NCBI GenBank assembly: GCA_041660105.1
Contig: JBAZWZ010000005.1
Location: 1-63,159 of the forward strand
Source: Minisyncoccota bacterium
GTDB lineage: Bacteria > Patescibacteriota > Minisyncoccia > Phycocordibacterales > UBA1550
DNA: 63,159 nucleotides
Direction of reading: 5' to 3'
The translations under genes were made by a program, and so were the position numbers. The notes under the pieces are model-generated. The model ran no database searches and was not told the origin of the DNA. It saw only the letters and a list, made by a program, of their open reading frames with translations. This document shows positions 1,414-48,057 of the stretch, piece by piece (position 1 is the first letter of the stretch; every line of letters begins with the position of its first letter).

Positions 1414-1452
<39 letters not shown>

Positions 1453-2107: not shown

Positions 2108-2757
2108 AAGTGGTGGAGGCAAGCCTTATCCCGAAGTTACGGCTGCTTTTTTGCCGAGTTCCTTGAGAAGCAATCACTCGTTCGCCTTAGTCTACTCGAC
2201 TCGAGCACCTGTGTCGGTTTTAGGTACGGTTTTTTATTTGTTATGCTTAGAAGCTTTTCTCGGAAAGTTGCTTTGCTGTATCTGCTCAGGCGAACCTGAG
2301 CATTTCTGCTTCACTTGCGCTCGGTATTAAAACCAGACTCCCGGATTTACCTAAGAATCGCACTGATGACACAAACGCAAATCCAATAATGCGCACGGCA
2401 TACTAACCTTCGTCACTCCATCGCACAAATAAAAAGTTAAGGAATATTAACCTTATGTCCATCGGCTTCAGCTTTCGCTATCACCTTAGGCCCGACTAAC
2501 CCTTCGCTGATCAACATCGCAAAGGAAACCTTGCTCTTACGGCGTGCGGGGATCTCACCCGCATTGTGGTTACTTGTGCCAACATTCTCACTTCGTGCCG
2601 CTCCAGAGTTGCTCACACTTCTCCTTCAGCGCAGACACGAACGCTCTCCTACCGCTCCCCCATCTCTAAAGACGAGAGAACCCTCAGTTTCGGTACTACG
2701 CTTAGTCCCGATTATCTTCGGTGCAGAGTCTCTTAGTGAGTGAGCTGTTACGCTTTC

Positions 2758-2789
<32 letters not shown>

Positions 2790-3362
2790 TCACTGTCTGA
2801 GAAACTCCACCTCCTTAAGTACACTTAGCGTAGATTTTGGGACCTTAACTTGAGATCAGGGCTGTTTCCCTTTTGACCGACGGAGCTTCGCCCCCGTAGT
2901 CTTACTGCCGAGTATTTAATCTCTGGTATTCGGAGTTTGATAGGGTTAACGAGATTGCTCCCTGTTTAACCCTTCCAGTGCTCTACCCCCAGAGGGTACG
3001 CTCGACGCTATGCCAAAACATATTTCGGAGAGAACCAGCTATTACCAGATTCGATTAGCTTTTCACTCCTTACCACAAGTCATCCGATGGTGTCGCACGG
3101 CCAACCGGTTCGGGCCTCCATCTGTATTTCTACAAACTTCACCCTGCTCATGGTAAGCTCATCTGGCTTCGGGTCTCATGCATACAACAAACGCGCTATT
3201 CACACTCGGTTTCCCTAAGGCTCCACCCGACAAGGGCTTAGCCGCGCTGTATACATGAACTCGTTGGCTCATTCTTCAATAGGCACGCAGTCACTCTAAA
3301 TAAATTTAAAGCTCCTACTCCTTGTAAGCATATGGTTTCAGTTCTATTTCACTCCCCTCACC

Positions 3363-3407
<45 letters not shown>

Positions 3408-3927
3408 TTCTAAGAGTATTTAGCCTTACCAGTTAGTTCTGGTAGATTCCCCCGAGCTATTCGTGTCTCGAAGTACTCAAGAACAGAGACAAAGAAGATG
3501 TAATGTTTTCGTTTACCGGGCTATCACCGTCTAGGGCCTTGCTTTCCAGCAAGTTCAACTAACATTACATTTTGTAACTCCTCTCGTATAAATACGACGT
3601 CTCTGCCTTACAACCCCTACTATAAATAGTAGGTTTGGGCTATTTCCGTTTCGCTCGCCGCTATTCAGGAAATGTTCCGCCATTCGGCGGCTTTTTTTAT
3701 TTTCCTCCAGGTACTGAGATGTTTCACTTCCCTGGGTATACTCCAACATTTAAATGTTGGTCATGACCTATAACAGTCATGGGGTTTCCCCATTCAGAGA
3801 TCTCCGGATCAAAGGTTGCTAGGCACCTCCCCGAAGCTTATCGCAGCCATGCTACGTCTTTCATCGCCTCTTAGAACCAAGGCATCCACCATATGCTCTT
3901 AAATTTCTTATTAGGAAATTTAAAAAC

Positions 3928-10802: not shown

Positions 10803-13800
10803 CTAGATGACTTCTTTTCTAACCGTAATGAAGTACGGGGAAAGATAATCGTTGAACTCATTGTTTGCAGAATCTTTTATGTGGGCTTTTATTCGATAAG
10901 TTCCTACGGGGACAGTGGTTGTTGCCCCAGAAAGAACCCAGTTCCAGGATTTCGAACATGAGACTGTCCCGTCGACACACCCTGTCCCCGAATAAAAGAT
11001 TTTGTCTTTTGATGGATCTGATATATCCTGAATCGCAACGGAAACCCAATCAACGCTTTCACTTGCGGTAAGCTCGAGCTCCATATCAGCTGGTGTCGTC
11101 GTCGCAAAATCTGCAACAACATCCCCCGCGACACCATTAAACGTATAACTCAAAATCGAAGGAGGAGTGGTGTCGAGCACGACAGGAGGTGGGGTCGTAT
11201 CTGGCGCGACAGTTACCGTAACAGTGTACACTTGCGTTGAGCCATTTTCTGCAGTAACCGTATACGAAACAGGATTTGTGAAGTCTTGAGAAGATAGTAA
11301 CGATGGGCTCGACGTTGCAAGTGGTGACAGAGTAATAGCTGGCGTAAGTGTACGCACATCAATACCAAAAGGAACCGTCAGACTAATAGTGTGTACAGTC
11401 TCATCGATGACTCCAGGAATTGTTGATGTAGAAACCTGCAAACTAAAAGCTGTGATTGATTTTTCAGTACTAAGAACTACGGGTGGAGTTGTGTCTTGAG
11501 AAATAATTACCGTAACAGTGTACACTTGTGTCATGCCATTTTCTGCAGTTACCGTGTATGTAACTGGATTCGTAAAATCATGCACAGCCCCCGAAGCTGG
11601 GCTTGAAGTTGCAAGAGCAGGCACTGATATAGCTGGTGAGAGAGAGTGAACATCAGTACCAAAAGGAACCGTCAGACTAATAGTGTGCGTAGTCTCGTCT
11701 ATAACTCCTGAGATTGTTGACGTAGAAACCTGCAAACTAAATGCAGTAATTGATTTTTCCGAGCTCAAGATTACAGGAGGTGGAGGAAGGACTATCGCAG
11801 GCTTATTACTGATATTATCAATCACCACTTTCCCATTCCCCGCACACGTTTTTGACCATCCATCAAGACTACCGCACGCACCAGGGGCAACAGCGACTCC
11901 TGTATACGACGAAGTTTGGTAGTACACAGCGACACGTCCGCCTGAAGGAATGATAAACCCACAGTTCCACCCGCACCAAACCATACTTCCTCCTGCTGAT
12001 ACGAATGATCCAGCCCCTTCCAATTCACTAGCTTCAACATAAACACTACCGCCAACTTTTCCAGCTGGACCATTCGCAGAAACACCGCCGTTATTAATAA
12101 ATTTACCGGAGGATTTAATGTACACAGAAGCCCTTTCTCCGGAAGCAAAGAAATTGTCGGGGTCACTCACCGTAGGTGTGGTCCAAGCAGAAACAGAGGA
12201 ACCGACACCAATATCAAGATTGTTAACAACAATACGAAGTTGTTGCCCCGCTCCTGCGCCTAATTTACCGCCATCTTTCAAAATAAGCGAATCAACAATC
12301 AATGGGTCTGCACACATCAGTGTCAAAGTGCTTCCCTTCCCTATTGTCATAGTGGGAACATTTAATGTCACTCCTGACCCAATAGTTACAAAGGAACTAC
12401 TAGTTGCAGATAGATTGTTTGCGTTGACCGTAGAGTTGTCACTCATAGTAAATCGCGCACCACCAGCCAAAGAAATTGTGTCGGCTGTAAGCGTTGCACT
12501 TTTTTCAATTTCAACACTAGCTCCGTTTGTAAGATAAATATTGTGATAATTTAATGGCTCATCATTTTTTTGAAACCTGAACGAGTTTTTAATATACAAA
12601 TCTTTATGAGTATCATCAAAAAATGCTGCAGTTCCCGCTCCCACCGCTGAACCAGAAAACGATGAACTTGCATAGTGAACTGCTATTCTACCACCACCTC
12701 CAGCAAATCTGTATGGCCAATTTGCATAACTACCATTTGCACTTAACATGCCTGTCCCGGCAAAATTGTTTGCGACCACGTAAATACTCCCCCCGCTTGC
12801 ACGAGTACCACTGCCATTCGCAGAAATAATTCCGTCATTTACAAACGAATCTGTTACAACTATTTGTACTGCTCCTCCACCTCGTGGCCCCATTCCACTT
12901 CCTAAATCAACAGGTCTTGTGGCAGATCCATAAATTGGTGGATTCACCCCTCCTCCCCCACCTCCGTAACTTGCAGCTGGGTCTGATCCTGTACCAGCTT
13001 GAGGGGGACTCCCTGGCCCCATGTTGTACCCTTGACCGTTTGCAGAGATTGAGGAGCCAGAAGAGACTGTGAGATTTGCAACCTCCAGTGAGAGTGTTTT
13101 TTCTATCGAACCAGTAATAGCAGATCCTCCTAACACAGACAGCGTGTTCGTATTTATTTTTTCTCCACCAGAAAGCACTAAGGTTGAGGCCCCATCCAGA
13201 ATAATCTCGGGGATATTTAATACATCGCCATTCGAAAAAGAGAGATATGAGCCACCAGAAAGAACAAGTTTATCTGCGGAAAGTGATACACCACTATCTA
13301 CACTGACTGATGCGCCGTTTGTAAGATAAATATTGTGATAATTTAATGGCTCATCATTTTTTTGAAACCTGAACGAGTTTTTAATATACAAATCTTTATG
13401 AGTATCATCAAAAAATGCTGCAGTTCCCGCTCCCACCGCTGAACCAGAAAACGATGAACTTGCATAGTGAACTGCTATTCTACCACCACCTCCAGCAAAT
13501 CTGTATGGCCAATTTGCATAACTACCATTTGCACTTAACATGCCTGTCCCGGCAAAATTGTTTGCGACCACGTAAATACTCCCCCCGCTTGCACGAGTAC
13601 CACTGCCATTCGCAGAAATAATTCCGTCATTTACAAACGAATCTGTTACAACTATTTGTACTGCTCCTCCACCTCGTGGCCCCATTCCACTTCCTAAATC
13701 AACAGGTCTTGTGGCAGATCCATAAATTGGTGGATTCACCCCTCCTCCCCCACCTCCGTAACTTGCAGCTGGGTCTGATCCTGTACCAGCTTGAGGGGGA

Positions 13801-15851
13801 CTCCCTGGCCCCATTCTGTACCCTTGCCCATTTGCAGAAACCGAGGAGCCCCTCTCAACCGTGAGATTTTTTGCAAATATTTTTACTCCCTTAAAAGTAT
13901 TCGTTGAATTTTCATTTCCAGCTGCAGTAATTACTGCATTATTGGTTATTGTTAAATTGTTGAATACATATTCTCCGGCAGCTAACCATGCGCTCGATGA
14001 CGCTGTGACATTTTCCTCTACACTATCTGCGATGCCATTTTTGTTGAGGTCTGAATATAAAATGTTTGCGGGGTTGGGGGTTTCAAATACCATCGCAAAT
14101 GTTGTGGATGGGACGGGTGTGTTCGTTGCGGTAGTAGTGGTTGCAAAATTCGTCTCAAAATAACCAAAAGCAGACCAGTTTGTACTTGAAGTGCTTACGC
14201 TACTTTCAAGACGTGTGCGATATTGCCAAATACCAGGACTTGGGATCTCTACTTCTTTATGAAAAGATAATACTGCGCTTGTGGTAGTAGCTTCGGCTGA
14301 AATAATTACTGATGATGTTGCGGTATCAAGCGATGTGTTTTTTAGCTCGATTGCAATCGTATCAAAAGTTGAAGTACTGTTGTGGTATTCGCCAGAAAAT
14401 ATTACAGTACTTGTGCTGTATGTTTGCGCGGAGGTTGTTGCAAAGACGATGCCGTCAGGAATAATAATTTCTTCAGTTGATGTTGCAGGTGGCTCACTTG
14501 AGTCCTCTGTAGAAGTTGCTACCGCTGGTGAAGCTGGCTGCTGTATCGACCCACCCCCAAAAGACATTGGCTGTGGATTTGACGAGCCTCCTCCTGCTAT
14601 TTGCTGCGGTGTTGATGGCAGCTGTGGTAAATTAGGCCGTTGTCCCGCAATAACGACTGGTGGTGGTAACGCTGGAGTGAGAGGGGTTTGGATAATATTA
14701 GGAGTAAGAGCAGATGGGGCAGTTTGTGGTGGTGGTAACGCTGGAGTGAGAGGGGTTTGGATTGCGCCAATGACAGATGCGGTGTTGCTTGCTGGGTTAA
14801 TATTTTCAGACAGGAGTCCCCCGACGGCATCACGAATCCCAGAACCAACAGCGACAGCGGTGTTAGAAATAGCACTCCCGACGGCAACAGTTGTGTTTAT
14901 TACGGCATTGCCTACAGCGGTACTTGCATGGTATCCCCAAACGGCCGTATTAACGGCAAGATAGTAAGTCCCGACAGCGACATCAGAACACGTGTTGTAG
15001 CTCGCAACAAAGGCACCTTCAGTGGTACCGATAACAGTATCAGCGACTGCAAAAACTGCCCCGTTTAACTTATGTGAAAAAGAATACATGGGTGGCGACA
15101 TACAGGGCGCGTCTGTGTCTTGAGTTGTATTGCTTGAGAGACTACTGAGGCCCTCGCCTACTTTCGTAATAATTTCACTACTACTTCCACTATATTTTAG
15201 ATATACATCGGAAAAACTATGTCCTGAAAGTGGGTTTATGCCTCCGGCAACTTCTGCTATATGTATATTAGTTGGCAAAATCGGATGAAGTGGCGAAAGG
15301 TGTCCAACGAGACCTGAGATAACATGGTCTGTATCAGAGGTGAGCCATTTTCCACCCCCAGCAACTCGACTAGCGGGAGTAGCGACTCCATACACTCCCA
15401 TAGATTGTTTTGGGATGCCACCAGCCTGATCGGCAACTACATCATAAAAACTATTTGCATAAAAATTTCCCTGTGAGTGGGCAACAAGGAGGAGCTTTTG
15501 AGTTTTGATTTTTTTACTTGCATCATCCAGCATCTCGATGAGATCATAGTCTGCAACTACCTCGCTTCCAAATGCTTTTTGAATAATAGAATCAAAAAGG
15601 TCAGCAACACCACCAAAATGGGAAGGGTTGAGGAGGTATTCGTATTTTATCTTTTGATTATTCCAATCAAAACCAACCTTCTTCATGAGCGCCTCCATAT
15701 TATTTATAGCACCATCTTTATCAGTTAGAACACCATTTATAGTAGCAATGGTGTATCCGTCTGCAGAACATTTCCCCGTCTCAATTGCTGCAAAAGATAC
15801 TGCCGGGAAAATGAAAATGATGACCAAAAAGTAGTAGAGGGGGAATTTCAT
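10803..15851 (-). CDS. giant secreted surface protein: N-terminal alpha/beta-hydrolase (lipase-like), Gly-rich beta-helix repeats, Ig-like repeats
   Basis: 1682 aa. It has a signal peptide and an A-H-S-Q-G nucleophile-elbow motif (LLLVAHSQGNFY). A ~264-aa unit is repeated, containing GQGYxMGPGSPPQAGTGSDPAASYGGGGGG and ISANGSG/LSANGS beta-helix-type turns. Two ~95-aa Ig-like repeats (SEKSITAFSLQVSTSTI..YTVTAENG.TQVYTVTV) are present, along with proline-rich linkers. Confidence 0.85.
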   Translation of the reverse strand: MKFPLYYFLVIIFIFPAVSFAAIETGKCSADGYTIATINGVLTDKDGAINNMEALMKKVGFDWNNQKIKYEYLLNPSHFGGVADLFDSIIQKAFGSEVVADYDLIEMLDDASKKIKTQKLLLVAHSQGNFYANSFYDVVADQAGGIPKQSMGVYGVATPASRVAGGGKWLTSDTDHVISGLVGHLSPLHPILPTNIHIAEVAGGINPLSGHSFSDVYLKYSGSSSEIITKVGEGLSSLSSNTTQDTDAPCMSPPMYSFSHKLNGAVFAVADTVIGTTEGAFVASYNTCSDVAVGTYYLAVNTAVWGYHASTAVGNAVINTTVAVGSAISNTAVAVGSGIRDAVGGLLSENINPASNTASVIGAIQTPLTPALPPPQTAPSALTPNIIQTPLTPALPPPVVIAGQRPNLPQLPSTPQQIAGGGSSNPQPMSFGGGSIQQPASPAVATSTEDSSEPPATSTEEIIIPDGIVFATTSAQTYSTSTVIFSGEYHNSTSTFDTIAIELKNTSLDTATSSVIISAEATTTSAVLSFHKEVEIPSPGIWQYRTRLESSVSTSSTNWSAFGYFETNFATTTTATNTPVPSTTFAMVFETPNPANILYSDLNKNGIADSVEENVTASSSAWLAAGEYVFNNLTITNNAVITAAGNENSTNTFKGVKIFAKNLTVERGSSVSANGQGYRMGPGSPPQAGTGSDPAASYGGGGGGVNPPIYGSATRPVDLGSGMGPRGGGAVQIVVTDSFVNDGIISANGSGTRASGGSIYVVANNFAGTGMLSANGSYANWPYRFAGGGGRIAVHYASSSFSGSAVGAGTAAFFDDTHKDLYIKNSFRFQKNDEPLNYHNIYLTNGASVSVDSGVSLSADKLVLSGGSYLSFSNGDVLNIPEIILDGASTLVLSGGEKINTNTLSVLGGSAITGSIEKTLSLEVANLTVSSGSSISANGQGYNMGPGSPPQAGTGSDPAASYGGGGGGVNPPIYGSATRPVDLGSGMGPRGGGAVQIVVTDSFVNDGIISANGSGTRASGGSIYVVANNFAGTGMLSANGSYANWPYRFAGGGGRIAVHYASSSFSGSAVGAGTAAFFDDTHKDLYIKNSFRFQKNDEPLNYHNIYLTNGASVEIEKSATLTADTISLAGGARFTMSDNSTVNANNLSATSSSFVTIGSGVTLNVPTMTIGKGSTLTLMCADPLIVDSLILKDGGKLGAGAGQQLRIVVNNLDIGVGSSVSAWTTPTVSDPDNFFASGERASVYIKSSGKFINNGGVSANGPAGKVGGSVYVEASELEGAGSFVSAGGSMVWCGWNCGFIIPSGGRVAVYYQTSSYTGVAVAPGACGSLDGWSKTCAGNGKVVIDNISNKPAIVLPPPPVILSSEKSITAFSLQVSTSTISGVIDETTHTISLTVPFGTDVHSLSPAISVPALATSSPASGAVHDFTNPVTYTVTAENGMTQVYTVTVIISQDTTPPVVLSTEKSITAFSLQVSTSTIPGVIDETVHTISLTVPFGIDVRTLTPAITLSPLATSSPSLLSSQDFTNPVSYTVTAENGSTQVYTVTVTVAPDTTPPPVVLDTTPPSILSYTFNGVAGDVVADFATTTPADMELELTASESVDWVSVAIQDISDPSKDKIFYSGTGCVDGTVSCSKSWNWVLSGATTTVPVGTYRIKAHIKDSANNEFNDYLSPYFITVRKEVI
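12523..13812 (-). repeat. 792-bp-period tandem duplication inside the giant gene (~500 bp essentially identical)
   Basis: 12523-~13020 matches 13315-~13812. The antisense ORFs 12623-12829 and 13415-13621 are 100% identical. Identity decays after ~13020/13812. Confidence 0.9.
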
Positions 15852-17712: not shown

Positions 17713-20700
17713 CTAGTTATTTGTGATAACTGATGTATCTGTTGGGTAGTTGTAGATGAGTGTTCCTGTGATGTTGCTTACACCACCATCAACATCGTTC
17801 CAAAGGAGGAGATTTGCGGCGCCAAGTTTGGTTGATACTGAAGTTGTGTTAACAGCACCTGACACATCGGTAGCTGTACCGTAGATTCTGAAGGTCTTTG
17901 AAGTTCCTGCAGAAATAGTGTAGCCAGTTCCGAGTGTGATTGTTGTTGTTGCAGTTCCGCCAGCTGACATAGTGAAGTTACCGTTTGTACTGGTAATTGT
18001 AGTACCATCGGTTCCCTTTACTGTGAATGCTGCTGTTCCTGAAGCAACTCTTGTAACACCAGTTGATGTCATACTAATTGGCAAGTCAACAAGCTTCAAA
18101 GCACCATTTGCATCAGCTGCAACGGTAATCTCAGCAAGTTTTACAAGACCATTAATAAGTGAATCAGATGAGTCAGCAATAGTTACGGTTGGCTTTGTTG
18201 CAACCATAGTCAACGTGTTAGAAGGAACAGCGAGGAACGAAATGTTACCCGTGCCGAACGCTGCTGTCGTCGTTGCCCAAAGTACTGTTACTGAAGTTGC
18301 ACTTGCAACTGCGGTAATTGTACCGAGTCCACCTACCAACGTAGCAGGTGATGATGTCGCTCCAACAGTAGAGAGTACCATTCCAACCTTTGCTGGAGTT
18401 GCCCCTGCTACAATTGTAAGCGCAGACTCAGCACCAGCTACTGGTGTTGTACCAGAAGGATCTGTTGCAAACGTCTGAGCACTACCAACTGGAGTTGATG
18501 TTGTTACACCACCAATTGTGTACTTCATAAACGTAAGGTTCAAGATAGCTGTCGTATTTGACAAGATACCGTTTGTACCTACTGTTGACAATGAAGCCTG
18601 TACAACTACATTCGCACCACCAGCACCTGCAGGAATAACTACTGCAAGACCTGTGAGGTGTGCAACGTTATTCACTACTGGAGCACATACACCACCTACA
18701 CATACCTGTGTAACTGGAGTTGATGTTGCTGCGATTGTACCACCAGAAACGAGGAACTTAAGTTCTGAGATGGTTGCTGTACCGTTCGTAGCAACAAAGT
18801 TGTATGAAGCGGCTGAAAGATTCTGTGATCCTCCAACAACGAACTGCGCAGACAATGAAGCTGGAGATGGGTTGAGGGTAGGAGCAGCAGAAACTGAACC
18901 TGTCAAAACTGTAAGTGTCTGACCGTTAGTTGCTGAAGCAGGAGTCAATGTAGCATTTGAACTTGCACCTACAGCTGTAGGGCGAAGTGTTGATGTGTAT
19001 GTACTCGAACTTGTTGCAGCACCGAGATCAGCCATAATGTCAATCGTCTTCGTCTGCCCTGGAGCAAGAGTGAAGTTAACTGAGAAGTTGTTTGCAGCTG
19101 AAGGATTGATAGGTGTTGCACCTGATCCTGAAGTCTCTGTTGTACGCAAGTTACTCAAGTTTGTAAGAACGCCAGTTGTCGTAAGAGCAACTGCGAGGTT
19201 CGTAATACGAACGCCTTCTGACGCGCTTGGGTTTGAAAGAATGTATGAACCCAACTTAACGTTTGATGTGTTTGGGTTAACAGTCTGTGCACCTGAGTAC
19301 CCAGCTGACTGAGCAACACTAAGTGAACCTGCAGCAATAGTCAAAGAATTACCAGTAACTGCTGCTGTAGGAACGTTCACCATAGAAGATGAATTCTGTC
19401 CTTGACCATTAGATGCTCCAATAATCAAGTTTGCGCTCACTGTACCATCAGTGTAGTTTGCAGCACCAGTTCCCTGGAGGTCTGCACGTACTTCAAGAGT
19501 TGCAGTCTGTCCAGCCGCCAAGATCATTGATGATCCGAGGTTGAATGCAGTATCCACTCCTGAAAGGATGTTAGATACACTTGAACCAACCTGTGCTCCA
19601 TTGTAGAAGAGCGCAACGTTGTTAACACCTGTAGCAGCAACAGCTGACTGTCCTGCAAGGATAGGCTCAATAGTAATTGTACTTACCTTGATATCCTCCC
19701 CGTACGCCTTAACAGAGAACTTTGCAATCGTTGCACCTGTTGATCCACTCGTTACGGTTGTAAGACCGTTGAATGTAGTATCAACAGTTGTTGAAACTGA
19801 ACCTACGTTAATAGTGATAGTTCCAGCGCTTGCAAGAGTCGATGAAAATGACGGTGCAGCGTGTGTACCGCCAGTTCTCATTGAAACATTCACGCCGAGC
19901 TGTGAATCCATAACGATGAGGTCAGCTGTGTTCTGAAGAGAAAGCTGAACTGTACGGTTTGAACCCTTTACAACATCAGCACGTACTTCTACGGTTGCTG
20001 AACCAGTGTTCAATGTTACAGGAGATGAAGCAAAGTCAAACGAGATAATCTGCGTTGAAGCATTTACTACTCCGTTTGAACCTACTGCTGTACCGTTAAC
20101 ATAGAGCTTGATGTTTGCAAGTGCATCTGATGGCGCTGAGCCGATGTACTTGAAGTTCGCACCCTTAAGTGATACGGCACGTGTTGATACCGTTACTGGA
20201 GCTGACCAGAATGAGTATCCAAGTGTACCTGCATCTACGTTTGCAGTCGCAACAGTCTGTGTTCCAACAAGAACATCAGCGAAAGTAGCTGAAGCAACGG
20301 TCATAATGTTGCCTGAGATACTTGCTGTTGTTGCTGCTGAAGAACCAGTTGTTGTGAAGCTTGTGAGCTGTACACCAACGAGCTGTCCCTGTGTATCAGC
20401 AAGAATATCAGCTTTCACTGAAAGTGTTACTGAACCAGAAACTGCAAGACTAAGACCGCTGAAGATGACTCCACCTGTGGTGTTCACCGAAGCGCCATCA
20501 GATACGCGCGTATTCCCCTGATAGAGGTATACGTTTGAAAGTGTGGTGTTTGATGAAATACCAATACGCTGGAACTCAACGCGAGAAATCGTACCATTAC
20601 CTGTGAAGGTGAAGTGTGCGAGATCAGCAGTTGCCTGACCAGCTACAACAGCTGATGCTGCAGGATTGTCCTGAGCGAGAGCAGCGGTAACAGGACCTGA

Positions 20701-21174
20701 CTGTGTAGTCGTGGTCACTGGTGTTGTTGTAGTTGTTGTTCCACATGCCTGAGCCGTCAATGGGCTAAATGCATAACCAGGAAGACAACCTGGGATTGTT
20801 GATGTGGTTGTCGTAACTGTGCCACCCATGGTGTTCAACTTTGCACGTGTAAGTGCACCTACGAAACCTGTTCCTGAAGTAAGACCAGCTGGTGTAAGAA
20901 CCTCTGATGCATACTTGTTCTGGAACTTGATAACTGCAGCTTTCGTTGCAGCACCGAAATAAGTAGTCTCTGATCCAGGAGCACCTGCACCTGAAACTGA
21001 AACCTGAGTTGCGGCGTCTGAGTTCAAGACAACCTGAAGTGCCTGAACATCAGCACCTGTGCTACCCTGCTTCAAGTTTGCTGAAAATGTGTACGCTGAT
21101 GCTGTCGTTGCGATAGCAAATGCGGCCACAAACAAACCTGCAACAATGGCAGACTTTGATGTGAATTTATTCAT
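17713..21174 (-). CDS. S-layer-like surface protein with an N-terminal peptidoglycan-binding domain
   Basis: 1153 aa. It has a signal peptide and a PG_binding_1-like block (LKQGSTGADVQALQVVLN...YFGAATKAAVIKFQNKY). A poly-Thr linker follows, then about 1000 aa of T/S/A/G/V-rich beta repeats. Confidence 0.8.
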   Translation of the reverse strand: MNKFTSKSAIVAGLFVAAFAIATTASAYTFSANLKQGSTGADVQALQVVLNSDAATQVSVSGAGAPGSETTYFGAATKAAVIKFQNKYASEVLTPAGLTSGTGFVGALTRAKLNTMGGTVTTTTSTIPGCLPGYAFSPLTAQACGTTTTTTPVTTTTQSGPVTAALAQDNPAASAVVAGQATADLAHFTFTGNGTISRVEFQRIGISSNTTLSNVYLYQGNTRVSDGASVNTTGGVIFSGLSLAVSGSVTLSVKADILADTQGQLVGVQLTSFTTTGSSAATTASISGNIMTVASATFADVLVGTQTVATANVDAGTLGYSFWSAPVTVSTRAVSLKGANFKYIGSAPSDALANIKLYVNGTAVGSNGVVNASTQIISFDFASSPVTLNTGSATVEVRADVVKGSNRTVQLSLQNTADLIVMDSQLGVNVSMRTGGTHAAPSFSSTLASAGTITINVGSVSTTVDTTFNGLTTVTSGSTGATIAKFSVKAYGEDIKVSTITIEPILAGQSAVAATGVNNVALFYNGAQVGSSVSNILSGVDTAFNLGSSMILAAGQTATLEVRADLQGTGAANYTDGTVSANLIIGASNGQGQNSSSMVNVPTAAVTGNSLTIAAGSLSVAQSAGYSGAQTVNPNTSNVKLGSYILSNPSASEGVRITNLAVALTTTGVLTNLSNLRTTETSGSGATPINPSAANNFSVNFTLAPGQTKTIDIMADLGAATSSSTYTSTLRPTAVGASSNATLTPASATNGQTLTVLTGSVSAAPTLNPSPASLSAQFVVGGSQNLSAASYNFVATNGTATISELKFLVSGGTIAATSTPVTQVCVGGVCAPVVNNVAHLTGLAVVIPAGAGGANVVVQASLSTVGTNGILSNTTAILNLTFMKYTIGGVTTSTPVGSAQTFATDPSGTTPVAGAESALTIVAGATPAKVGMVLSTVGATSSPATLVGGLGTITAVASATSVTVLWATTTAAFGTGNISFLAVPSNTLTMVATKPTVTIADSSDSLINGLVKLAEITVAADANGALKLVDLPISMTSTGVTRVASGTAAFTVKGTDGTTITSTNGNFTMSAGGTATTTITLGTGYTISAGTSKTFRIYGTATDVSGAVNTTSVSTKLGAANLLLWNDVDGGVSNITGTLIYNYPTDTSVITNN

Positions 21175-38935: not shown

Positions 38936-39523
38936 TTACAAATGTGACGCACTCAGCGCATCGTTGATCTTGGGGATAATTTCTAATCGTATTTTTTCAA
39001 ATTCACGCAGAATATCAAGGGAATATACGCTTTGTTCAAAATATGATTCATATCCTGCTAGGTTCATATAGCCCAAATGCACCAGTACACGAAAAGCAAC
39101 GAGTGTTTCAAAGGACGGCGCAAATTCCTCCTCTATTGGGGTCTTCTCCAAGAAATCCACAACACGCACAATCTCATCAAAAAGTTCTTGGTCTCTTCCC
39201 TCACCTTGAAGAAGTCGGGAGAGCAGTGCACAATATCGCGCAAAGAGTTTCATACGGATCTCATCGCCTTTTATGATATCGAGTGGTCGCCAGGCGCCAG
39301 CACTCACGATGCGCCACACCTCTTTCCCGCGCACGAGGTCCACGGTCACCAGAGAATAATCCTGAAGTGTATATTTGAGTTTTGATTTTGCTTCACGCAC
39401 AGACTGTGCGGCGCCACCAATAAGCCCAAGCTCCTCGGTAAATATTTTATAGTAGCGATTTGATTCTCCTGACGGCGTGCTGCTTAAAATTATACCGCGT
39501 GTATGATAGATATGATGCGTCAT
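38936..39523 (-). CDS. recO: DNA repair protein RecO (short form)
   Basis: 195 aa with a RecO N-terminal OB pattern (..TRGIILSS.P.GESN....FTEELG.I...AQSVRE..SKL). It overlaps the ileS stop by 4 nt. Confidence 0.8.
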   Translation of the reverse strand: MTHHIYHTRGIILSSTPSGESNRYYKIFTEELGLIGGAAQSVREAKSKLKYTLQDYSLVTVDLVRGKEVWRIVSAGAWRPLDIIKGDEIRMKLFARYCALLSRLLQGEGRDQELFDEIVRVVDFLEKTPIEEEFAPSFETLVAFRVLVHLGYMNLAGYESYFEQSVYSLDILREFEKIRLEIIPKINDALSASHL

Positions 39524-42500
39524 ATACTGTGCCCAACAAAACCAAAACCGAAATCAATTCCTTCAATTTTAGCAGGGGAACCTGCAAATCCACCTTCCTC
39601 AACAAATTCAATACCACTTAAAAGAGCACTTCTTTTCAAATCTTCAGTAAATTCATTTATAAGATCTTGCCCATCTTTTGTTGTCTTGACGTTAAGAATC
39701 ACAATGTCAGTTGGTTCAAGATTTGCTAATTTACGAAGCCCTTGCACGGTACGGAGAAGCTCGCGGAATTGTCCCTCCTTTTTGAGCTCGGGAGTGATGA
39801 CGGTATCGAGCTCAACATCGGTCGCGAGATTGGTTGACCACATAACTTCTTTAACGTTGAGTTCATCAGCAATAATCAGCGCAAGTTCTTGTGAAAGTGC
39901 TTCACCTTTTACCGTCACGGATGCAAGTGGTTGACGAACCTTGAGACCTGCCTTTGCGCGCGCCTCAAGAGCAAGTGACACAACACGGCGCACCTCTGTC
40001 ATTGCAGAAATTATTTTATCATCTGGCTCAGTAAATAGTGGCCACGACTCGAGGTGCACACTTTCCTTCTCTCCCCCAGCGTGCGCATACAAATGTTCCG
40101 CCAAAAACGGCATCACAGGAGCAAGAAGCTTCGAAAGTTCAAGGAGTACAATACGTGTCGTCTCAATAGCGTGCGCGCGGTCGGCAACATCATCAGACTT
40201 GAAGCGATCACGCGAACGACGAATGTACCACGTGGAAAGGTCGTCAACAAAGAGCCCTAGTGGCTTCACGGCTCGGTCGAGCTCGTATGCATCAAGGGAT
40301 GTAGTCATCTCTGACACAAGCTCTGCAAGACGCGCAAGGATCCACTGATCAAGAGGATTATCGCTCACATTGTCTACCGTTTTCATCTGTACCCCGTACA
40401 TTTCATAAAACGAGAGCACGTTCAAAAGGCGCGCAATATTTTTCTTTACCACTTCATCCACACCACGTTCAGAAAATGAGAGGTCCTCTGCGTGCACTAT
40501 TGGTGACGAGAGTAAATAGTATCGCACTGCATCCGCGCCGTATTTCGCAAGGACCTCACTAGGGTCAGGATAATTCTTGAGCTTCTTGGACATCTTTTGA
40601 CCATCCTCTGCAAGCACAAGCCCGTTTACGATTACATTCTTGAAGGGCGCTTTCCCAAAGAGGCCCACCGAGAGGATGAGGAGTGAGTAGAACCATCCGC
40701 GTGTTTGGTCGATACCTTCTGCAATAAAATCAGCTGGAAAATTCTTTTCAAAAAGTTCCTTGTTTTCAAACGGATAGTGGAACTGCGCATACGGCATAGA
40801 GCCCGACTCGAACCAACAGTCGAATACATACGGAACACGCGTCATCATGGCGCCACACGCACAACCAACCTGCACCTTGTCGATGTATGGCAAATGGAGG
40901 TCAAATTCATAATCTCCATTGTGGGGAAATGGCGTAAACGCGAGGGGGACCATTTCTCCCGTCTTCACGAAGTCAACCTTGCCGTCCTTGAGCTCGACGC
41001 CACCCGCGACTCCTGCACCTTCGACTCCCGTCATAAGCATCCACACAGGGTACTCGTGGGTCACGATGAGAATAGTTTTGCCCGTGTACTTTTCTTCAAG
41101 GTCCTCGAGAAACGCCATTGCGCGACGCTTCACGTCGAGAAGATTCTCTCCCCCTTCAGGGCGCCGGGTAAATTTATCTTCCTGAGAAACGAAGTGTTCG
41201 CGATAATCAGAGATTGGCTTGCCGTCAAAAATTCCCGTATCTATTTCCTTGATACGTTCGTCAACAATAATATTTTTTGCATCAAAACCAATTGTGTTCG
41301 CGACAATTTCCGCCGTCTGTCTCGTGCGTGCAAAAGGCGACACAAAAATCAAATCAATTTTTTCATTCTTGAGAGTATCAGCTGTTTTTTCTGCTGACGC
41401 GCGACCATTCGCCGTGAGTCCGTACTTGGTACTCGTTTCAACTTTTGAGCTTACCGTATTTGTCGCATTACTCTCTGCTTCGCCGTGACGCATTACGAGA
41501 TACTTATTGCCAGACTTTTTTGTGTGATCAGCAAGCTCTGCCCGAGAGCCTGATACAAAACGCTCATTACACTCACTACACTGCCACACAGGAAGAGGCG
41601 CACCCCAATAACGAGAGCGAGAAATAGCCCAATCACGCGCCCCTTCGAGCCATTTGCCGAAGCGCCCATCACGCATATTTTGAGGCACCCATGATGTGGT
41701 CGCATTTGCTTCGAGGAGCCTCTCCTTAAGCTCGGGAACTTTCACAAACCATGACTGTGCCGCGTAGTTCAGGAGTGGAGTCTCGCAACGCCAACAGTGA
41801 GGATAGGCGTGCACTATTTTTTCTTTTGAGAAAAGCGCTCCAATACCTGCAAGGTGTTTGATAATTAAAATATCGGTGGCTTGCTGTCCATCCTTCTCTT
41901 TTGACTTTGGTTTTACTTGAACCCCCGCGAAATCTCGCACTTCCTTCTTCATCGTACCATCCATCGCTACGTGCTGAACAAACGGAAGATTCTCCTTCAC
42001 CCCGAGCGCCATATCGTCCTCACCAAAGGCAGGCGCAATATGCACCACGCCCGTACCACTATCCATCGTTACAAATTCTGCGCCGTAAATCTTCCAGCCG
42101 TTTTCTCGGTTTTTGAGAGTTGCATCGTTTGCATAGTAATCAAAAATCGGCTTGTAGGATTTACCAACGAGGTCAGCACCCTTAAACTCCCCAATAATTT
42201 CATGTTCCAAATCCTTTAATACATATGGCAACCGCTCCTTCGCAAGAATGTAGAATTCTGCGCTTTTGACTTTTGACTTTTGACTTTTGACTTTGCAATA
42301 AATGGACTCTTCATTTATTGCTAATGCTACATTCCCTGGAAGTGTCCATGGGGTCGTCGTCCATGCGAGTACATACGTGCCAGGCTCGTCGAGGAGCTCA
42401 AACTTCGCCGTCACTGAAATATCGGTGATGTCTTTGTAGTTGCTCGTGACTTCATTGTTTGAAAGTGTCGTCTCGCAACGAGGACAAATGTGCATTGACT

Positions 42501-43026
42501 TGAAACCCTGATACACAAGATTTTTCTCGTAGAGATTTTTAAAAGCCCACCACACACTTTCGGTGTACCCCGCATCCATCGTCGTATATGAATGTTCCAT
42601 ATCCACAAATCTTCCGATGCGGGGAATCGTTTTCTTCCACTCAGTGTCATAGCGGAAAACCGAAGCACGCGCAGCTTCATTGAATGCACCCACGCCATAT
42701 TTCTCAATGTCAGTCTTGTGTCCGAGTCCGAGCTCTTGCTCAATGAGGTTCTCAATAGGAAGACCGTGGCAGTCCCAACCCCACACACGACGCACATGGC
42801 GCCCCTTCATCGTCTGGTAGCGAGGGATAGTATCCTTGATCGTACTTGCAAGGAGATGCCCGTAGTGAGGAAGCCCAGTTGCAAAAGGAGGCCCGTCATA
42901 AAAGACAAACTCTCCGCCATCCTTGGTCTGCGCAAGGGATTTCTCAAAAATCCCCTTCTCAGCCCACATCGCCTGTGTTTCCTCCTCGCGGCGCGCAATA
43001 TCAGATTTTTTTACATCTTCATCCAT
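39520..43026 (-). CDS. ileS: isoleucine--tRNA ligase (type 2) carrying an internal histidine-phosphatase domain
   Basis: HIGH (PHYGHLL), CP1 editing block (WTTTPWTLPGN), KMSKS (KMSKKL), DQTRGWFYSL. The ORF is 1168 aa, about 190 aa longer than expected because of the insertion at aa ~508-700. Confidence 0.95.
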   Translation of the reverse strand: MDEDVKKSDIARREEETQAMWAEKGIFEKSLAQTKDGGEFVFYDGPPFATGLPHYGHLLASTIKDTIPRYQTMKGRHVRRVWGWDCHGLPIENLIEQELGLGHKTDIEKYGVGAFNEAARASVFRYDTEWKKTIPRIGRFVDMEHSYTTMDAGYTESVWWAFKNLYEKNLVYQGFKSMHICPRCETTLSNNEVTSNYKDITDISVTAKFELLDEPGTYVLAWTTTPWTLPGNVALAINEESIYCKVKSQKSKVKSAEFYILAKERLPYVLKDLEHEIIGEFKGADLVGKSYKPIFDYYANDATLKNRENGWKIYGAEFVTMDSGTGVVHIAPAFGEDDMALGVKENLPFVQHVAMDGTMKKEVRDFAGVQVKPKSKEKDGQQATDILIIKHLAGIGALFSKEKIVHAYPHCWRCETPLLNYAAQSWFVKVPELKERLLEANATTSWVPQNMRDGRFGKWLEGARDWAISRSRYWGAPLPVWQCSECNERFVSGSRAELADHTKKSGNKYLVMRHGEAESNATNTVSSKVETSTKYGLTANGRASAEKTADTLKNEKIDLIFVSPFARTRQTAEIVANTIGFDAKNIIVDERIKEIDTGIFDGKPISDYREHFVSQEDKFTRRPEGGENLLDVKRRAMAFLEDLEEKYTGKTILIVTHEYPVWMLMTGVEGAGVAGGVELKDGKVDFVKTGEMVPLAFTPFPHNGDYEFDLHLPYIDKVQVGCACGAMMTRVPYVFDCWFESGSMPYAQFHYPFENKELFEKNFPADFIAEGIDQTRGWFYSLLILSVGLFGKAPFKNVIVNGLVLAEDGQKMSKKLKNYPDPSEVLAKYGADAVRYYLLSSPIVHAEDLSFSERGVDEVVKKNIARLLNVLSFYEMYGVQMKTVDNVSDNPLDQWILARLAELVSEMTTSLDAYELDRAVKPLGLFVDDLSTWYIRRSRDRFKSDDVADRAHAIETTRIVLLELSKLLAPVMPFLAEHLYAHAGGEKESVHLESWPLFTEPDDKIISAMTEVRRVVSLALEARAKAGLKVRQPLASVTVKGEALSQELALIIADELNVKEVMWSTNLATDVELDTVITPELKKEGQFRELLRTVQGLRKLANLEPTDIVILNVKTTKDGQDLINEFTEDLKRSALLSGIEFVEEGGFAGSPAKIEGIDFGFGFVGHSI
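40927..41505 (-). other. histidine-phosphatase (PGAM/CobC/SixA superfamily) domain inserted in-frame in IleRS
   Basis: YLVMRHGEAESN (RHG..N), SPFARTRQTA, EIDTGIFDG and ILIVTHEYP match the four signature blocks of the superfamily. It is flanked by IleRS sequence (..APLPVWQCSECNERF.. and ..DLHLPYIDKV..). Confidence 0.8.
42263..42294. repeat. (CTTTTGA)4.5 heptamer microsatellite inside ileS
   Basis: Encodes KVKSQKSKVKS within the CP1 region. The same heptamer array occurs in intergenic DNA at 5203-5230 and 56277-56312. Confidence 0.9.
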
Positions 43027-44949: not shown

Positions 44950-45666
44950 TCACTTCAAAACAATCTCGCGAATCTTCATATGAACCTCCTCCGGAGTGAG
45001 CTCATGAGGAGGGAGCGCCAGATCTTGATTGGGGACAACACACTTGATCACTGCCCATCCAAAAAAGTCTGCGTAAAGTCTCCCTGTTTTCGCCCCGTTT
45101 CTGACATATTCCATATCAGACTCGACAGCATCGAGACCAATCCCCGACCCTCGAGCACGCCTGAGCGCTCGCTCGCGAGAAACTTCGGGATCGAGGTCAA
45201 GATAAATAGTCACATCAGGTTTCGGCAACCCAAGATGATTATATTCAAGATCATAAAGCCAGTTTGCAAAGTTAATGATCTCTTCTTCTGTCTTCATCTT
45301 TCCTCCCTGGTGAAGGAGGTTGGATTCGACGTAGCGGTCAAAGATGACGATGTCGTGATTTGCAATCAAACTCTCGAGATAGTATTTGGACTCAAACCTG
45401 TCCTGAGCATAAACACGCGATGCCAGCTTGGGGTTTGCGTGCGCCCAGTCGTATTCGGCTGCGCGCGGAGACTTCATGAACTCAAAGAGCATTTTCCCCG
45501 CAAGGGTATCCTTATAGCGTGGGAATGAAACATTTCCCACGCGAATACCAGCTCTGCGAAAAAAATCTGCGAGCATCAATGTCTGTGTTTCCTTGCCTGC
45601 GCCATCAGAACCTTCAATGGCAATAGTTTTTATCTTCTTGCTTGGATCCTTTGCGTTAATGGACAT
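44950..45666 (-). CDS. tmk: thymidylate kinase-like
   Basis: IAIEGSDGAGKETQ P-loop, SFPRY, FDRYVESNLLHQ. The start is moved to the ATG at 45666, preceded by AGGAGG. Confidence 0.8.
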   Translation of the reverse strand: MSINAKDPSKKIKTIAIEGSDGAGKETQTLMLADFFRRAGIRVGNVSFPRYKDTLAGKMLFEFMKSPRAAEYDWAHANPKLASRVYAQDRFESKYYLESLIANHDIVIFDRYVESNLLHQGGKMKTEEEIINFANWLYDLEYNHLGLPKPDVTIYLDLDPEVSRERALRRARGSGIGLDAVESDMEYVRNGAKTGRLYADFFGWAVIKCVVPNQDLALPPHELTPEEVHMKIREIVLK

Positions 45667-45732
45667 TTCTGCCTCCTGTAAAATATTGAGAACTGTGACC
45701 GAATTATTTTTACCACAAAACAACCCAAAACA

Positions 45733-46290
45733 CTACTCGCTCAAAGCTAGCGTCTTTTGAATTTGGGAGATACGCTCTTCGCGCGACCCCGCAACAACAA
45801 CGATTTTTACAGGCGAACGTTTGGTAATTTCGAACAGTGTTTCGATAAAAAGACAGTTAACACGATCGACGAAAGCAGTATTTGTATCTCGCAAAAGATC
45901 GTTCACAAGAGAGACTGAAACAGCTGTTGGTATAAAAACAAGGACATCAAGCCCCGAGAGTGACTTGTACATTATCTCCTCTGTTTCTTTTAAGAATTCT
46001 TCACCAATGACCCCCTTTTCAAATTGAGCCAGCGTGTAAATATAATTATCAATCACACAACGGTCAAACAAAATATTTTGCTCATTCCCATCAAACGTTT
46101 GATGGAATAAGAAATCACGAATGGCGCGCTGACTTTCTTCAGTTGTTTTTTGATTAATCTGAAGCCCTTTTTGTTTTACAAGATCACGATACGTCTCCTG
46201 TGTTGTACTGTAAGCGGGAAATGCCTTCAAAAAATCCTTCACAAACGTAGACTTCCCTGTATTTTGTGGACCAATTACCGCAATGCGCAT
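45733..46290 (-). CDS. P-loop NTPase, small kinase-like (AAA_28 / dNMP-kinase-like)
   Basis: MRIAVIGPQNTGKST Walker A and a DR..ID Walker-B-like block. 185 aa, embedded in the pyrimidine dNTP cluster. Confidence 0.5.
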   Translation of the reverse strand: MRIAVIGPQNTGKSTFVKDFLKAFPAYSTTQETYRDLVKQKGLQINQKTTEESQRAIRDFLFHQTFDGNEQNILFDRCVIDNYIYTLAQFEKGVIGEEFLKETEEIMYKSLSGLDVLVFIPTAVSVSLVNDLLRDTNTAFVDRVNCLFIETLFEITKRSPVKIVVVAGSREERISQIQKTLALSE

Positions 46291-46316
46291 AGTTTAAAGA
46301 TTATAGCACGCCACCC

Positions 46317-46739
46317 CTACTTCCCCGTACTGCCGAATCCGCCTTCGCCACGAAGTGTATTTGAGAGTTCAGAGACTTCATATATTTCGGCATGCTCTAC
46401 TTTTTGTATGAGCATCTGTGCGACTTTGTGCCCAAGCCCCACGTGGTATTCTTCGATACCCAAATTGATGAGTCCAGCCTTCACTTCACCGCGATACCCC
46501 GCATCTACGACGCCTCCAAGCGTTTTCAAGCCATGGGTGTTCGAAAGTCCGCTCTTGTCCCAAATGAGCCCAACGAAACCAGAAGGTATCTCCATTGCAA
46601 TACCTGTACTCACGAGAACACGCTCACCAGGTGCTACGACAACGTCTTCACACGCATATAGGTCAAACCCTGCATCACCCTCATGTGCATAGGTCGGAAT
46701 CTTTGCATCAGGGTGAAGTTTTTTGATATTGAGTTTCAT
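46317..46739 (-). CDS. dut: dUTP diphosphatase
   Basis: AGFDLYA, GVVDAGYRGEV and RGEGGFGSTG motifs. The start is moved to MKLNIKKL (46739). Confidence 0.93.
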   Translation of the reverse strand: MKLNIKKLHPDAKIPTYAHEGDAGFDLYACEDVVVAPGERVLVSTGIAMEIPSGFVGLIWDKSGLSNTHGLKTLGGVVDAGYRGEVKAGLINLGIEEYHVGLGHKVAQMLIQKVEHAEIYEVSELSNTLRGEGGFGSTGK

Positions 46740-46809
46740 TGACACCAAGTGTACCACGAGCGAACTCGTACAAACAAATACCCCACAGTCTTGCGACTGT
46801 GGGGTAATA

Positions 46810-47307
46810 TTATGCAAATTGCTTCCCTACGATATTGCTGGGGTGTTCGCGATTAAACAATCGCTCGCTCCCCTCCATCATAAACACATCGCCGAGTTCG
46901 GCAGCGATCATCTTGTCCCAGCACGAGGAACAAAAGAACCAATGACCCCAGGTGTACATCTCTGCCCCACGTATGTCGTGCCCACGCTCGCGTGCATCCG
47001 CTATCGCGCGAGCTTCACCGTGATTTTTTGTATCGCACCCTTCACAAAGTTCATATTGCTGCCCTGACGGAATCCTGAGCTTCACACGCTCACATCCGTG
47101 GTGCTCATGGTAGTCGCTGCCATTTGCCCCCATGCCGAGAACGTGTCCATTCTTCATAATCACACACCCGACAGGCATACTCTTGTCGACAGAATATTTC
47201 CGCGCGTACTCCTTCGCAAGCACCATAAACAAATGATTGACTGGTACGTGTTGGATAATGCGCCCCTCAGGCAGATACGGGTAAACAATTCCATTTGAAC
47301 TCTTCAT
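46810..47307 (-). CDS. dCMP deaminase / ComEB-type cytidine-deoxycytidylate deaminase
   Basis: Zinc motifs HGE (NHGEARAI) and CxxC (CSSCWDKM), plus an extra Cys/His-rich insert (HEHHGCERV...CEGC). Confidence 0.8.
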   Translation of the reverse strand: MKSSNGIVYPYLPEGRIIQHVPVNHLFMVLAKEYARKYSVDKSMPVGCVIMKNGHVLGMGANGSDYHEHHGCERVKLRIPSGQQYELCEGCDTKNHGEARAIADARERGHDIRGAEMYTWGHWFFCSSCWDKMIAAELGDVFMMEGSERLFNREHPSNIVGKQFA

Positions 47308-47436
47308 CGTACACCTCCTTAATATTAAAGAATAACCTCATTGAAAACTACTCTTTTTTGTTCCCTCCGTCAATGTCTACCGCAAAAGAAAAAGGCGGCA
47401 AAACGCTTCGCGTTTTGCCGCCCCATATTACTGCTT

Positions 47437-48057
47437 TTACACCTTCGGGTTTGTTACCCCACGCTGTCCTTGGTACTTACCACCGCGATCCTTGTACGAA
47501 GTCTCGCACACCTCGTCACTCTCAAGAAACAGTACCTGTGCGCAACCTTCGTTTGCGTAGATCTTTGCTGGAAGCGGGGTTGTGTTGGAGAACTCAAGCG
47601 TAATCTCCCCTTCCCATTCAGGCTCGAGGGGTGTCACGTTGACGATGATACCGCAACGCGCGTAGGTCGACTTGCCGAGGCAAACAACCAAAACGTTTCG
47701 CGGAATACGGAACCACTCCACCGTCCGAGCAAGAGCGAAAGAGTTGGGAGGGATGATACAGAAATCACCTTCCTTCTCGACGAACGACTGCGGATCGAAG
47801 TTCTTCGGGTCAACAATCGACGAATGAATGTTGGTGAATATCTTGAACTTGCTCGAGCAACGGACATCGTAACCATAGCTTGAAGTGCCGTAGGACACGA
47901 TTTTTTGCCCGTTCGCCTCCTTCACTTGCTTCGGGGAAAAAGGCTCAATCATCGGCCCGTCGAGGCGCTGCATCCCCGTGGGGACAGCGACCGATGCCCT
48001 TTCGACGGGGTCGAGACTACACATCTTGCGAATCCACTTATCGGACTTAATGCTCAT
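47437..48057 (-). CDS. dcd: dCTP deaminase
   Basis: [10 protein letters not shown].., [77 protein letters not shown]. Confidence 0.95.

Follow-up and report, generated by a model that had tools for sequence, protein, structure and literature searches.

A predicted histidine phosphatase nested in the isoleucyl-tRNA synthetase of Patescibacteria

Results

An ileS gene with an inserted phosphatase module

The DNA analyzed here is a 63,159-nucleotide stretch from a Minisyncoccota bacterium (contig JBAZWZ010000005.1; hereafter the window), which carries on its minus strand an ileS gene for a type 2 isoleucyl-tRNA synthetase (IleRS) of 1168 residues. Within this protein lies a segment of about 199 residues that is foreign to IleRS and is almost certainly a complete branch 1 histidine phosphatase (PhoE/PspA/CobC-like) nested in the synthetase. 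As the initial annotation had proposed, the reading frame is continuous, with synthetase and phosphatase encoded by a single uninterrupted open reading frame (ORF). The features of the gene are given below, with IleRS subdomains named as in PMC7191050 and PMC7955072.

39520..43026, minus strand: ileS, type 2 IleRS with nested phosphatase module, 1168 residues, one continuous ORF
41521..43026, minus strand: IleRS N-terminal part, residues 1–502 (first Rossmann half, CP core, CP1 editing domain, CP2, CP2-3 linker and start of CP3), aligning to 8c8u 10–478
42856..42867, minus strand: HIGH signature HYGH, residues 54–57 (within PHYGHLL, 53–59), assigned by motif
42337..42363, minus strand: threonine-rich editing-site motif WTTTPWTLP, residues 222–230, assigned by motif
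41605..41643, minus strand: CP2-3 linker ARDWAISRSRYWG, residues 462–474, equivalent to ScIleRS 453–465 (PMC7955072)
41569..41580, minus strand: first half of the CP3 zinc knuckle, C483-S-E-C486, upstream of the insert, assigned by motif
40924..41520, minus strand: inserted module, residues ~503–701 (short linker, histidine-phosphatase domain, C-terminal beta-hairpin tail), delimited by the gap in the 8c8u alignment
41005..41499, minus strand: His_Phos_1 (PF00300) match, residues 510–674
41482..41490, minus strand: RHG motif R513-H514-G515, with His514 as the predicted phospho-accepting nucleophile, assigned by conservation
41326..41328, minus strand: R567, second catalytic arginine
41245..41247, minus strand: E594, predicted general acid, assigned by conservation
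41056..41058, minus strand: H657, second catalytic histidine
40855..40863, minus strand: second half of the CP3 zinc knuckle, C722-A-C724, downstream of the insert, assigned by motif
40582..40596, minus strand: KMSKK signature (within KMSKKL, residues 811–816), assigned by motif
39520..40923, minus strand: IleRS C-terminal part, residues 702–1168 (end of CP3, second Rossmann half, anticodon-binding and C-terminal domains), aligning to 8c8u 480–869

We identified the host protein through profile, sequence and structure comparisons. The NCBIfam profile TIGR00392 (ileS) scored 860.6 bits against a cut-off of 621.4, in two stretches separated by the insert, and Pfam searches of the product returned tRNA-synt_1 split in two by His_Phos_1, together with Anticodon_1 (residues 893–1035) and DUF5915 (residues 1037–1144). 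Comparison with IleRS2 of Priestia megaterium (8C8U) using phmmer gave a match that was colinear over the whole length (E = 9e-219): query residues 10–502 pair with 8c8u residues 10–478 and query residues 702–1085 with 480–869, the module standing in the place of a single 8c8u residue. The colinearity with type 2 IleRS claimed in the initial annotation, and the places it gave for the signature motifs, were borne out. An AlphaFold2 model of the full-length protein, computed from a 66-sequence alignment, reached a predicted local distance difference test (pLDDT) score of 92.0 and a predicted template modelling score (pTM) of 0.85, with the blocks of the insert at ~90–97, and Foldseek comparison of its IleRS part with solved IleRS structures gave template modelling (TM) scores of 0.82 (8c8w) to 0.91 (1ile).

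Like the type 2 enzymes of P. megaterium (8C8U/8C8V) and Thermus thermophilus (1ILE), the protein possesses the HIGH and KMSKS signatures, the CP1 editing site and the type 2 C-terminal region. In an alignment of 75 full-length fused IleRS proteins, which underlies the conservation counts in this section and the following ones, the editing-site residues W222, T223–T225, W227, T228, H329 and D338 are invariant, as are K811 and K814 of the KMSK sequence. On these comparisons, the host protein is the housekeeping type 2 IleRS of a Yonathbacteria-like member of the Patescibacteria (Candidate Phyla Radiation, CPR), and its synthetase part, as read from the motifs, retains all synthetic-site and editing-site residues. 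The HIGH signature has its canonical form in the window (H-Y-G-H) and is replaced by G-x-H-H in 28/75 fused relatives, a swap that confers mupirocin hyper-resistance in IleRS2 (PMC10485003). The mupirocin-resistance enzymes MupA and MupB were rejected as identities for the window's protein, with 693.5 and 713.3 bits against NF000257 and NF000258 at a cut-off of 1900.

Extent, catalytic residues and fold of the module

Next to the synthetase profiles, the His_Phos_1 family matched the insert with E = 2.3e-34 (119.2 bits against a cut-off of 21.7; profile positions 2–164 of 194), so the histidine-phosphatase domain seen in the initial annotation passes the Pfam threshold. That annotation had placed the insert at 40927–41505 (residues 508–700); the segment is indeed not IleRS, and our alignment sets it on the minus strand with boundaries a few residues away from those given. 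Four phosphatase blocks follow each other in order, namely YLVMRHGEAESN (residues 509–520), SPFARTRQTA (563–572), EIDTGIFDG (594–602) and ILIVTHEYP (652–660), and they hold the full Arg-His...Arg...Glu...His set that had been described as intact. Four of these five residues, R513, H514, R567 and H657, were found in 75/75 fused sequences, E594 in at least 97%, and the accompanying G515 and N520 in 74/75 and 71/75, respectively. R567 is invariant in stand-alone relatives too. Either D or E occupies position 594 in 100% of the fused sequences, compared to 70% of the stand-alone relatives. From this pattern of conservation we consider it likely that the phosphatase is catalytically competent.

An AlphaFold2 model of the insert alone was of similar quality (pLDDT 91, pTM 0.89), and Foldseek aligned it with PspA, PhoE, GpgP, HFP, CobC and dPGM at TM scores of 0.70–0.78 (E = 1e-14 to 1e-11). 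The insert resembles the compact branch 1 phosphatases, including PspA (4IJ5), PhoE/YhfR (1H2E/1EBB), the glucosyl-3-phosphoglycerate phosphatase Rv2419c (4QIH), CobC (6E4B) and the riboflavin-pathway HFP (9MMH), in its length of about 200 residues and its catalytic residues, and like them it is without the mutase-type C-terminal tail. It differs from these enzymes in sharing only 19–27% identity with them, in being nested rather than free-standing, and in a set of clade-specific charges: those of K633, K650, R591, D642 and E644 are conserved in the fused copies and not in stand-alone relatives. Overall, the insert is mildly acidic, with a median isoelectric point of 6.0 and a net charge of −3, and no basic patch is evident from the sequence.

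We were unable to place the insert in a specific His_Phos subfamily, as it fell below every NCBIfam equivalog cut-off. The scores were 90.6 bits (cut-off 225) for dPGM_arch, 74.8 (162.9) for CobC TIGR03162, 77.8 (350) for PspA, 40.1 (74.5) for SixA and 59.4 (261) for GpmB. Since all of these cut-offs are missed, a substrate is not transferable to the insert by homology. Its second-best NCBIfam match was the bifunctional RNase H/acid phosphatase PRK07238 (Rv2228c/SCO2299 type; E = 2.5e-25), which likewise joins a His_Phos domain to a nucleic-acid enzyme. In contrast to the nested arrangement described here, that family is an end-to-end fusion with RNase H as the partner, and with 89.6 bits against a cut-off of 326 the insert is not a member.

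The insertion site in CP3

Motifs and alignment indicate that the insert is located in the CP3 subdomain, where it splits the zinc knuckle in two. CP3 corresponds to residues 459–526 of ScIleRS and 473–534 of CaIleRS, and that of T. thermophilus contains a zinc motif (PMC7191050), a feature that the window's protein shares. The sequences bordering the insert are RYWGAPLPVWQCSECNERF (residues 472–490) before it and DLHLPYIDKVQVGCACG (residues 709–725) after it. All four zinc-knuckle cysteines are present together in 52/75 relatives and are replaced together in the remainder. The distance between the positions equivalent to W481 and W738, which spans the module, is held at 250–273 residues across the 75 sequences.

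The module begins about 30 residues past the CP2-3 linker, which in yeast IleRS helps to form the pocket that receives reveromycin A and the 3' end of the tRNA (PMC7955072). Within this linker, residues D465, W466, R470 and R472 show little or no variation among the fused enzymes.

Distribution and conservation among relatives

To describe the distribution of the fusion, we scanned one genome per species and found the order flank-insert-flank, colinear with the window, in at least 80 Patescibacteria genomes at 44–78% identity. The lineages with the insert include Yonath-, Nomura-, Zambryski-, Wolfe-, Taylor- and Lloydbacteria, Paceibacterota and Minisyncoccia. In 66 of these genomes (of at least 80), the gene is unbroken and encodes more than 1000 residues in one ORF (median 1174). 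An exhaustive profile search of 1.84 billion representatives yielded 565 clusters at E ≤ 1e-30. Counted at 50% identity, the clusters with the insert number at least 150; of the 150 best, nearly all are matched over the entire profile, and the match falls at residue ~440–760 in those proteins among them that have IleRS length. When the insert was deleted from the query, 119/120 of the nearest IleRS relatives (62–83% identity) still proved to carry PF00300.

The close relative P0268 (967 residues, 62% identity) has an ordinary short linker where the window's protein has the module, showing that the synthetase can exist without it. Across the 75 proteins, mean identity to the window is 0.46 for the insert and 0.50–0.59 for the IleRS body, a similar degree of conservation in both. 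Taken with the invariant catalytic and synthetase residues and the narrow range of module length, both activities appear to be under purifying selection. The insert is, judging by this distribution, inherited with ileS across a large clade and not peculiar to the window's genome.

Relatives have been in public databases since the Parcubacteria genomes of 2015, under the labels 'isoleucine-tRNA ligase', 'class I tRNA ligase family protein' or 'hypothetical protein'. At NCBI, most go by one of the latter two names and not by isoleucine--tRNA ligase, presumably because the insert disrupts equivalog naming.

Integrity of the fused gene

The evidence on whether the fusion could have arisen as an artefact or by way of a mobile element is as follows. 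Our first search with the insert matched only fragments of 234–392 residues, and ileS lies in pieces on two related contigs (L001 and L002; ENA ERZ1286166), as would be expected from a chimeric join or a frameshifted gene pair. These contigs come from one sample, and the neighbouring genes on them (infC/IF3, argS, SIS-domain genes and others) are also split into short ORFs, which points to a noisy assembly; the two contigs look like an indel-rich long-read assembly, and it was their protein fragments that seeded the misleading short-protein matches of the first search. In 66 other genomes ileS is one intact ORF; because the same fusion recurs in frame in 66 independent assemblies, a chimeric join is excluded.

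The initial annotation had reported neither intein blocks nor flanking repeats, and both statements hold. No Hint or intein Pfam match was obtained, and the junction 'PHNG' is host sequence, aligning to 8c8u H480, in which HN is followed by Gly and not by Cys, Ser or Thr. Regarding a mobile insertion, the flanks contain only short chance repeats and there is no break in composition, the G+C fraction being 0.43–0.53 in windows over the insert, inside the range of the wider region at 37–45 kb.

Additional modules in IleRS and ValRS

Some IleRS relatives contain two or three phosphatase modules; among 149 representatives, 8 have at least two. Tandem modules inside CP3 occur in P0144, P0152 and P0160, whereas other copies occupy a second site, between KMSKS and the anticodon-binding domain (P0067, P0148, P0156 and P0147), or a third, between the WFESG strand and KMSKS (P0156 and P0147). 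P0158 (1395 residues) combines the CP3 phosphatase with a P-loop kinase-like module at this third site (residues ~745–865), which gave weak matches to AAA_18 (E = 1.3e-7) and AAA_33, contains the Walker A sequence GACGAGKT and is represented by one cluster. A kinase-phosphatase pair of this kind resembles RNA end-healing enzymes.

The same domain family is found in valyl-tRNA synthetase (ValRS). P0138 is a ValRS fragment with four phosphatase modules, and a search with it (P0300–P0417) indicated that His_Phos-bearing ValRS are common in Gracilibacteria/Peregrinibacteria-type genomes, with one to four modules each; by motif scan, 68/119 sequences have at least one RHG module. The dominant order, seen in 48 sequences, is HIGH, WCISRQ linker, phosphatase, Rossmann strand and KMSKS, which corresponds to the CP3-equivalent site. 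ValRS with and without the module occur at similar identity, and DUF559 (PF04480) or HU (PF00216) are listed for a few ValRS. The parallel with IleRS therefore extends to the position of the module and to multi-copy variants, in a different host enzyme and a different CPR lineage.

In a neighbour-joining tree, the ValRS modules form a clade of their own (83/84 tips), and those of IleRS branch closer to stand-alone phosphatases of Patescibacteria. This tree is crude, with a stand-alone set picked by similarity to the IleRS insert, and as it stands it does not support a single origin of the IleRS and ValRS inserts. The separate ValRS clade suggests independent captures, that is, that the IleRS and ValRS modules were acquired separately.

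Genomic neighbourhood

Downstream of ileS lies recO (38936..39523, minus strand; RecO_N E = 2.3e-11), and the ileS stop overlaps the recO start by 4 nucleotides (39520..39523), which suggests translational coupling. The order argS, ileS, recO, DUF11-like surface protein and class II aminoacyl-tRNA synthetase recurs in 44–61 of 80 related loci, placing ileS in a conserved housekeeping gene order; the last of these neighbours reads from its sequence as GlyRS.

Elsewhere in the window, we observed a run of pyrimidine nucleotide salvage genes upstream of argS (44950..48057, minus strand), comprising thymidylate kinase, an AAA_28 protein, dUTPase, dCMP deaminase and a dCTP deaminase-like protein. 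The 23S rRNA gene (31..3912, minus strand) measures 3882 nucleotides compared to a 2925-nucleotide model and contains a group I intron (364..564; Rfam RF00028, 56.8 bits); the excess length implies that more inserted sequence is present. Intron-bearing rRNA is typical of CPR bacteria. Two very large ORFs lie at 10803..15851 (minus strand, 1682 residues) and 17713..21174 (minus strand, 1153 residues).

Discussion

Relation to described synthetases

Where P. megaterium IleRS2 (8C8U) has one residue, the window's protein has about 199 more that form a complete enzyme domain, an arrangement present in no solved or described IleRS. We found no description of the fused architecture in the searchable literature, including recent papers on IleRS structure and evolution, and no curated family or model for it, in keeping with the initial annotation, which knew of no described aminoacyl-tRNA synthetase with such an insertion. 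The only curated precedent that we found for an extra enzyme domain in or on IleRS is the family of IleRS with a GNAT domain (NF040702, 'ileS_w_GNAT'). The window's protein does not belong to that family, scoring 310 bits against a cut-off of 1999 and giving no acetyltransferase Pfam match.

A possible local role for the phosphatase

Histidine phosphatases move a terminal phosphoryl group to the histidine of the RHG motif, with a glutamate as general acid, and their substrates are phosphomonoesters or phospho-histidine. By this chemistry, the protein would be a bifunctional enzyme, synthetase and phosphatase, in which His514 accepts the terminal phosphoryl group from a phosphomonoester while Glu594 serves as the acid; hydrolysis of the resulting phospho-histidine intermediate would then set phosphate free. 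The repeated capture of the module (at several sites, in several copies and in two paralogous synthetases), its tight predicted docking and its patchy presence together suggest that tethering has been selected and that its role is accessory, perhaps driven by conflict. If selection maintains the physical tethering of phosphatase to synthetase, the phosphatase would act locally. Few phosphomonoesters would be expected at a synthetase, namely a blocked tRNA 3' end, the phosphorylated synthetase itself, or AMP.

We therefore put forward, tentatively, that the phosphatase clears a phosphate group that would otherwise block isoleucylation. In this proposal, the likeliest target would be a 2'/3'-phosphate or a pyrophosphate on the CCA end of the tRNA, and the alternative a phospho-Ser, phospho-Thr or phospho-His on the synthetase near the ATP and KMSKS site; taken singly, we regard unblocking of the tRNA end as somewhat unlikely and unblocking of the enzyme itself as distinctly so. 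Modifications of both kinds have been described in other systems: toxSAS toxins pyrophosphorylate the tRNA 3'-CCA end and thereby block aminoacylation (bioRxiv 10.1101/2021.04.30.441581; PMC11559606), and the kinases HipA and HipT inactivate the class I synthetases GltX and TrpS (PMC6581861). Kinase-phosphatases of the T4 Pnkp type and the small alarmone hydrolases that reverse toxSAS offer a functional analogy only, in that they remove a phosphate or pyrophosphate blocking the 3' end of tRNA or RNA. Their phosphatase folds belong to HAD or HD families, which are unrelated to His_Phos.

Several observations weigh against a role in unblocking. The nearest relatives by sequence and structure are all small-molecule enzymes, acting on phosphoserine, phosphoglycerate derivatives, alpha-ribazole phosphate or a riboflavin precursor, and we know of no member of the histidine-phosphatase superfamily that acts on RNA ends. 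The mildly acidic insert is by itself unlike an RNA binder, and where a toxin attacks many tRNAs, repairing tRNA-Ile alone would not restore translation. The conserved ileS neighbours in the 80 related loci include no gene for a kinase, toxin or phosphatase, and neither the insert nor the whole protein had a match in PADLOC-DB v2 at E ≤ 0.01. Finally, a contact between CP3 and tRNA is not described in the IleRS structural literature that we examined, including PMC7191050 and PMC7955072.

A more specific form of the unblocking proposal, which we offer as speculation and consider unlikely, would make the phosphatase a built-in antidote that strips a phosphate or pyrophosphate placed by toxins of competitors, hosts or phages from the CCA end or from the synthetase, so that charging resumes. 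On the same speculative footing, this defence logic would be convergent in the IleRS and ValRS of different CPR lineages, and the tandem copies, extra sites and kinase variants could be read as traces of an arms race.

Alternative explanations

Nearly as likely as local unblocking, in our assessment, is that the module is a small-molecule phosphatase of the PhoE/PspA/CobC type that was captured into a permissive surface loop of an abundant essential protein and kept only for co-expression in a minimal genome, with a substrate from nucleotide, phosphosugar or phospho-amino acid salvage unrelated to aminoacylation. The small-molecule substrates of all the closest characterized relatives fit this explanation, as does the acidic surface of the insert. 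A stand-alone Patescibacteria homologue (P0006) is 44% identical to the insert, and the IleRS inserts group near such stand-alone proteins. The Rv2228c-type family provides a precedent, in that its His_Phos domain, though fused to a nucleic-acid enzyme, acts on a small molecule. Unrelated domains also occur inside class Ia synthetases, among them GNAT (NF040702), the AAA_18 module of P0158, and DUF559 and HU in some ValRS. Moreover, the fold of CP3 varies among IleRSs (PMC7191050), which makes the site plausibly permissive. Permissiveness alone can hardly explain, however, why separate captures took place at the equivalent site of two paralogous synthetases, or why three sites and up to four copies are in use. 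The tight predicted docking (pTM 0.85), the strict length and the charges specific to fused copies further suggest integration with the host enzyme.

We judge it improbable that the module serves as a regulatory sensor or a structural element without net turnover, in which binding of a phosphorylated metabolite, or phosphorylation of His514, would tune aminoacylation or editing allosterically, or in which the domain would offer a docking surface. Consistent with such a role, the model arranges the module confidently and rigidly against the catalytic body, and the site adjoins the CP2-3 linker, part of the active-site pocket; CPR genomes also have few dedicated regulators. The conservation of the full catalytic set argues otherwise, as it includes Glu594, which is required for turnover and not for binding, and multiple tandem copies are hard to rationalize in a sensor.

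More improbable still is inactivation of an inhibitor, one of three roles suggested in the initial annotation, by which the module would confer built-in resistance, stripping the phosphate from a natural phosphorylated compound that inhibits IleRS or ValRS at the very point where this compound attacks. The patchy gain, loss and copy number of the module would suit this function, and the GxHH form of the HIGH signature in 28/75 fused enzymes shows that the clade is under antibiotic pressure at IleRS. Against it, the ileS locus has no biosynthetic or immunity gene context, and no inhibitor of IleRS or ValRS that is a phosphomonoester is known to us; those synthetase inhibitors known to contain phosphorus are adenylate mimics of the phosphoramidate diester type, without the terminal phosphoryl group that the reaction requires. 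Of the other two suggested roles, removal of phosphates from tRNA ends is part of the unblocking proposal above, and turnover of diadenosine tetraphosphate (Ap4A) or alarmones is the least likely of the three, because the superfamily transfers terminal phosphoryl groups from monoesters and not from dinucleoside polyphosphates. Given the independent assemblies and the junction sequence described above, we dismiss an assembly chimera, a frameshifted gene pair, an intein or a mobile insertion as virtually out of the question.

Implications

The window represents one member of a large undescribed family, the sequences of which are themselves abundant in public data. For annotation, the lesson is that the NCBI pipeline gives fused proteins only the generic name 'class I tRNA ligase family protein'. 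Few enzymes have been studied as intensively as the aminoacyl-tRNA synthetases, and an extra domain in one of them is usually a sign of new biology, be it editing, signalling or resistance. In the fused IleRS, the catalytic core of an essential synthetase houses a second catalytic centre, which belongs to another class of enzyme and appears to be active. This arrangement is conserved in much of the CPR and has a counterpart in the ValRS of other CPR lineages. Should the module prove to be a metabolic passenger, it would be a clean natural example of a tolerated nested insertion at CP3, useful for engineering. Were tRNA or the synthetase itself to be the substrate of the phosphatase, the fused IleRS would be the first synthetase to contain its own repair or de-blocking activity, and the histidine-phosphatase fold would for the first time have a role directed at RNA or at a synthetase.

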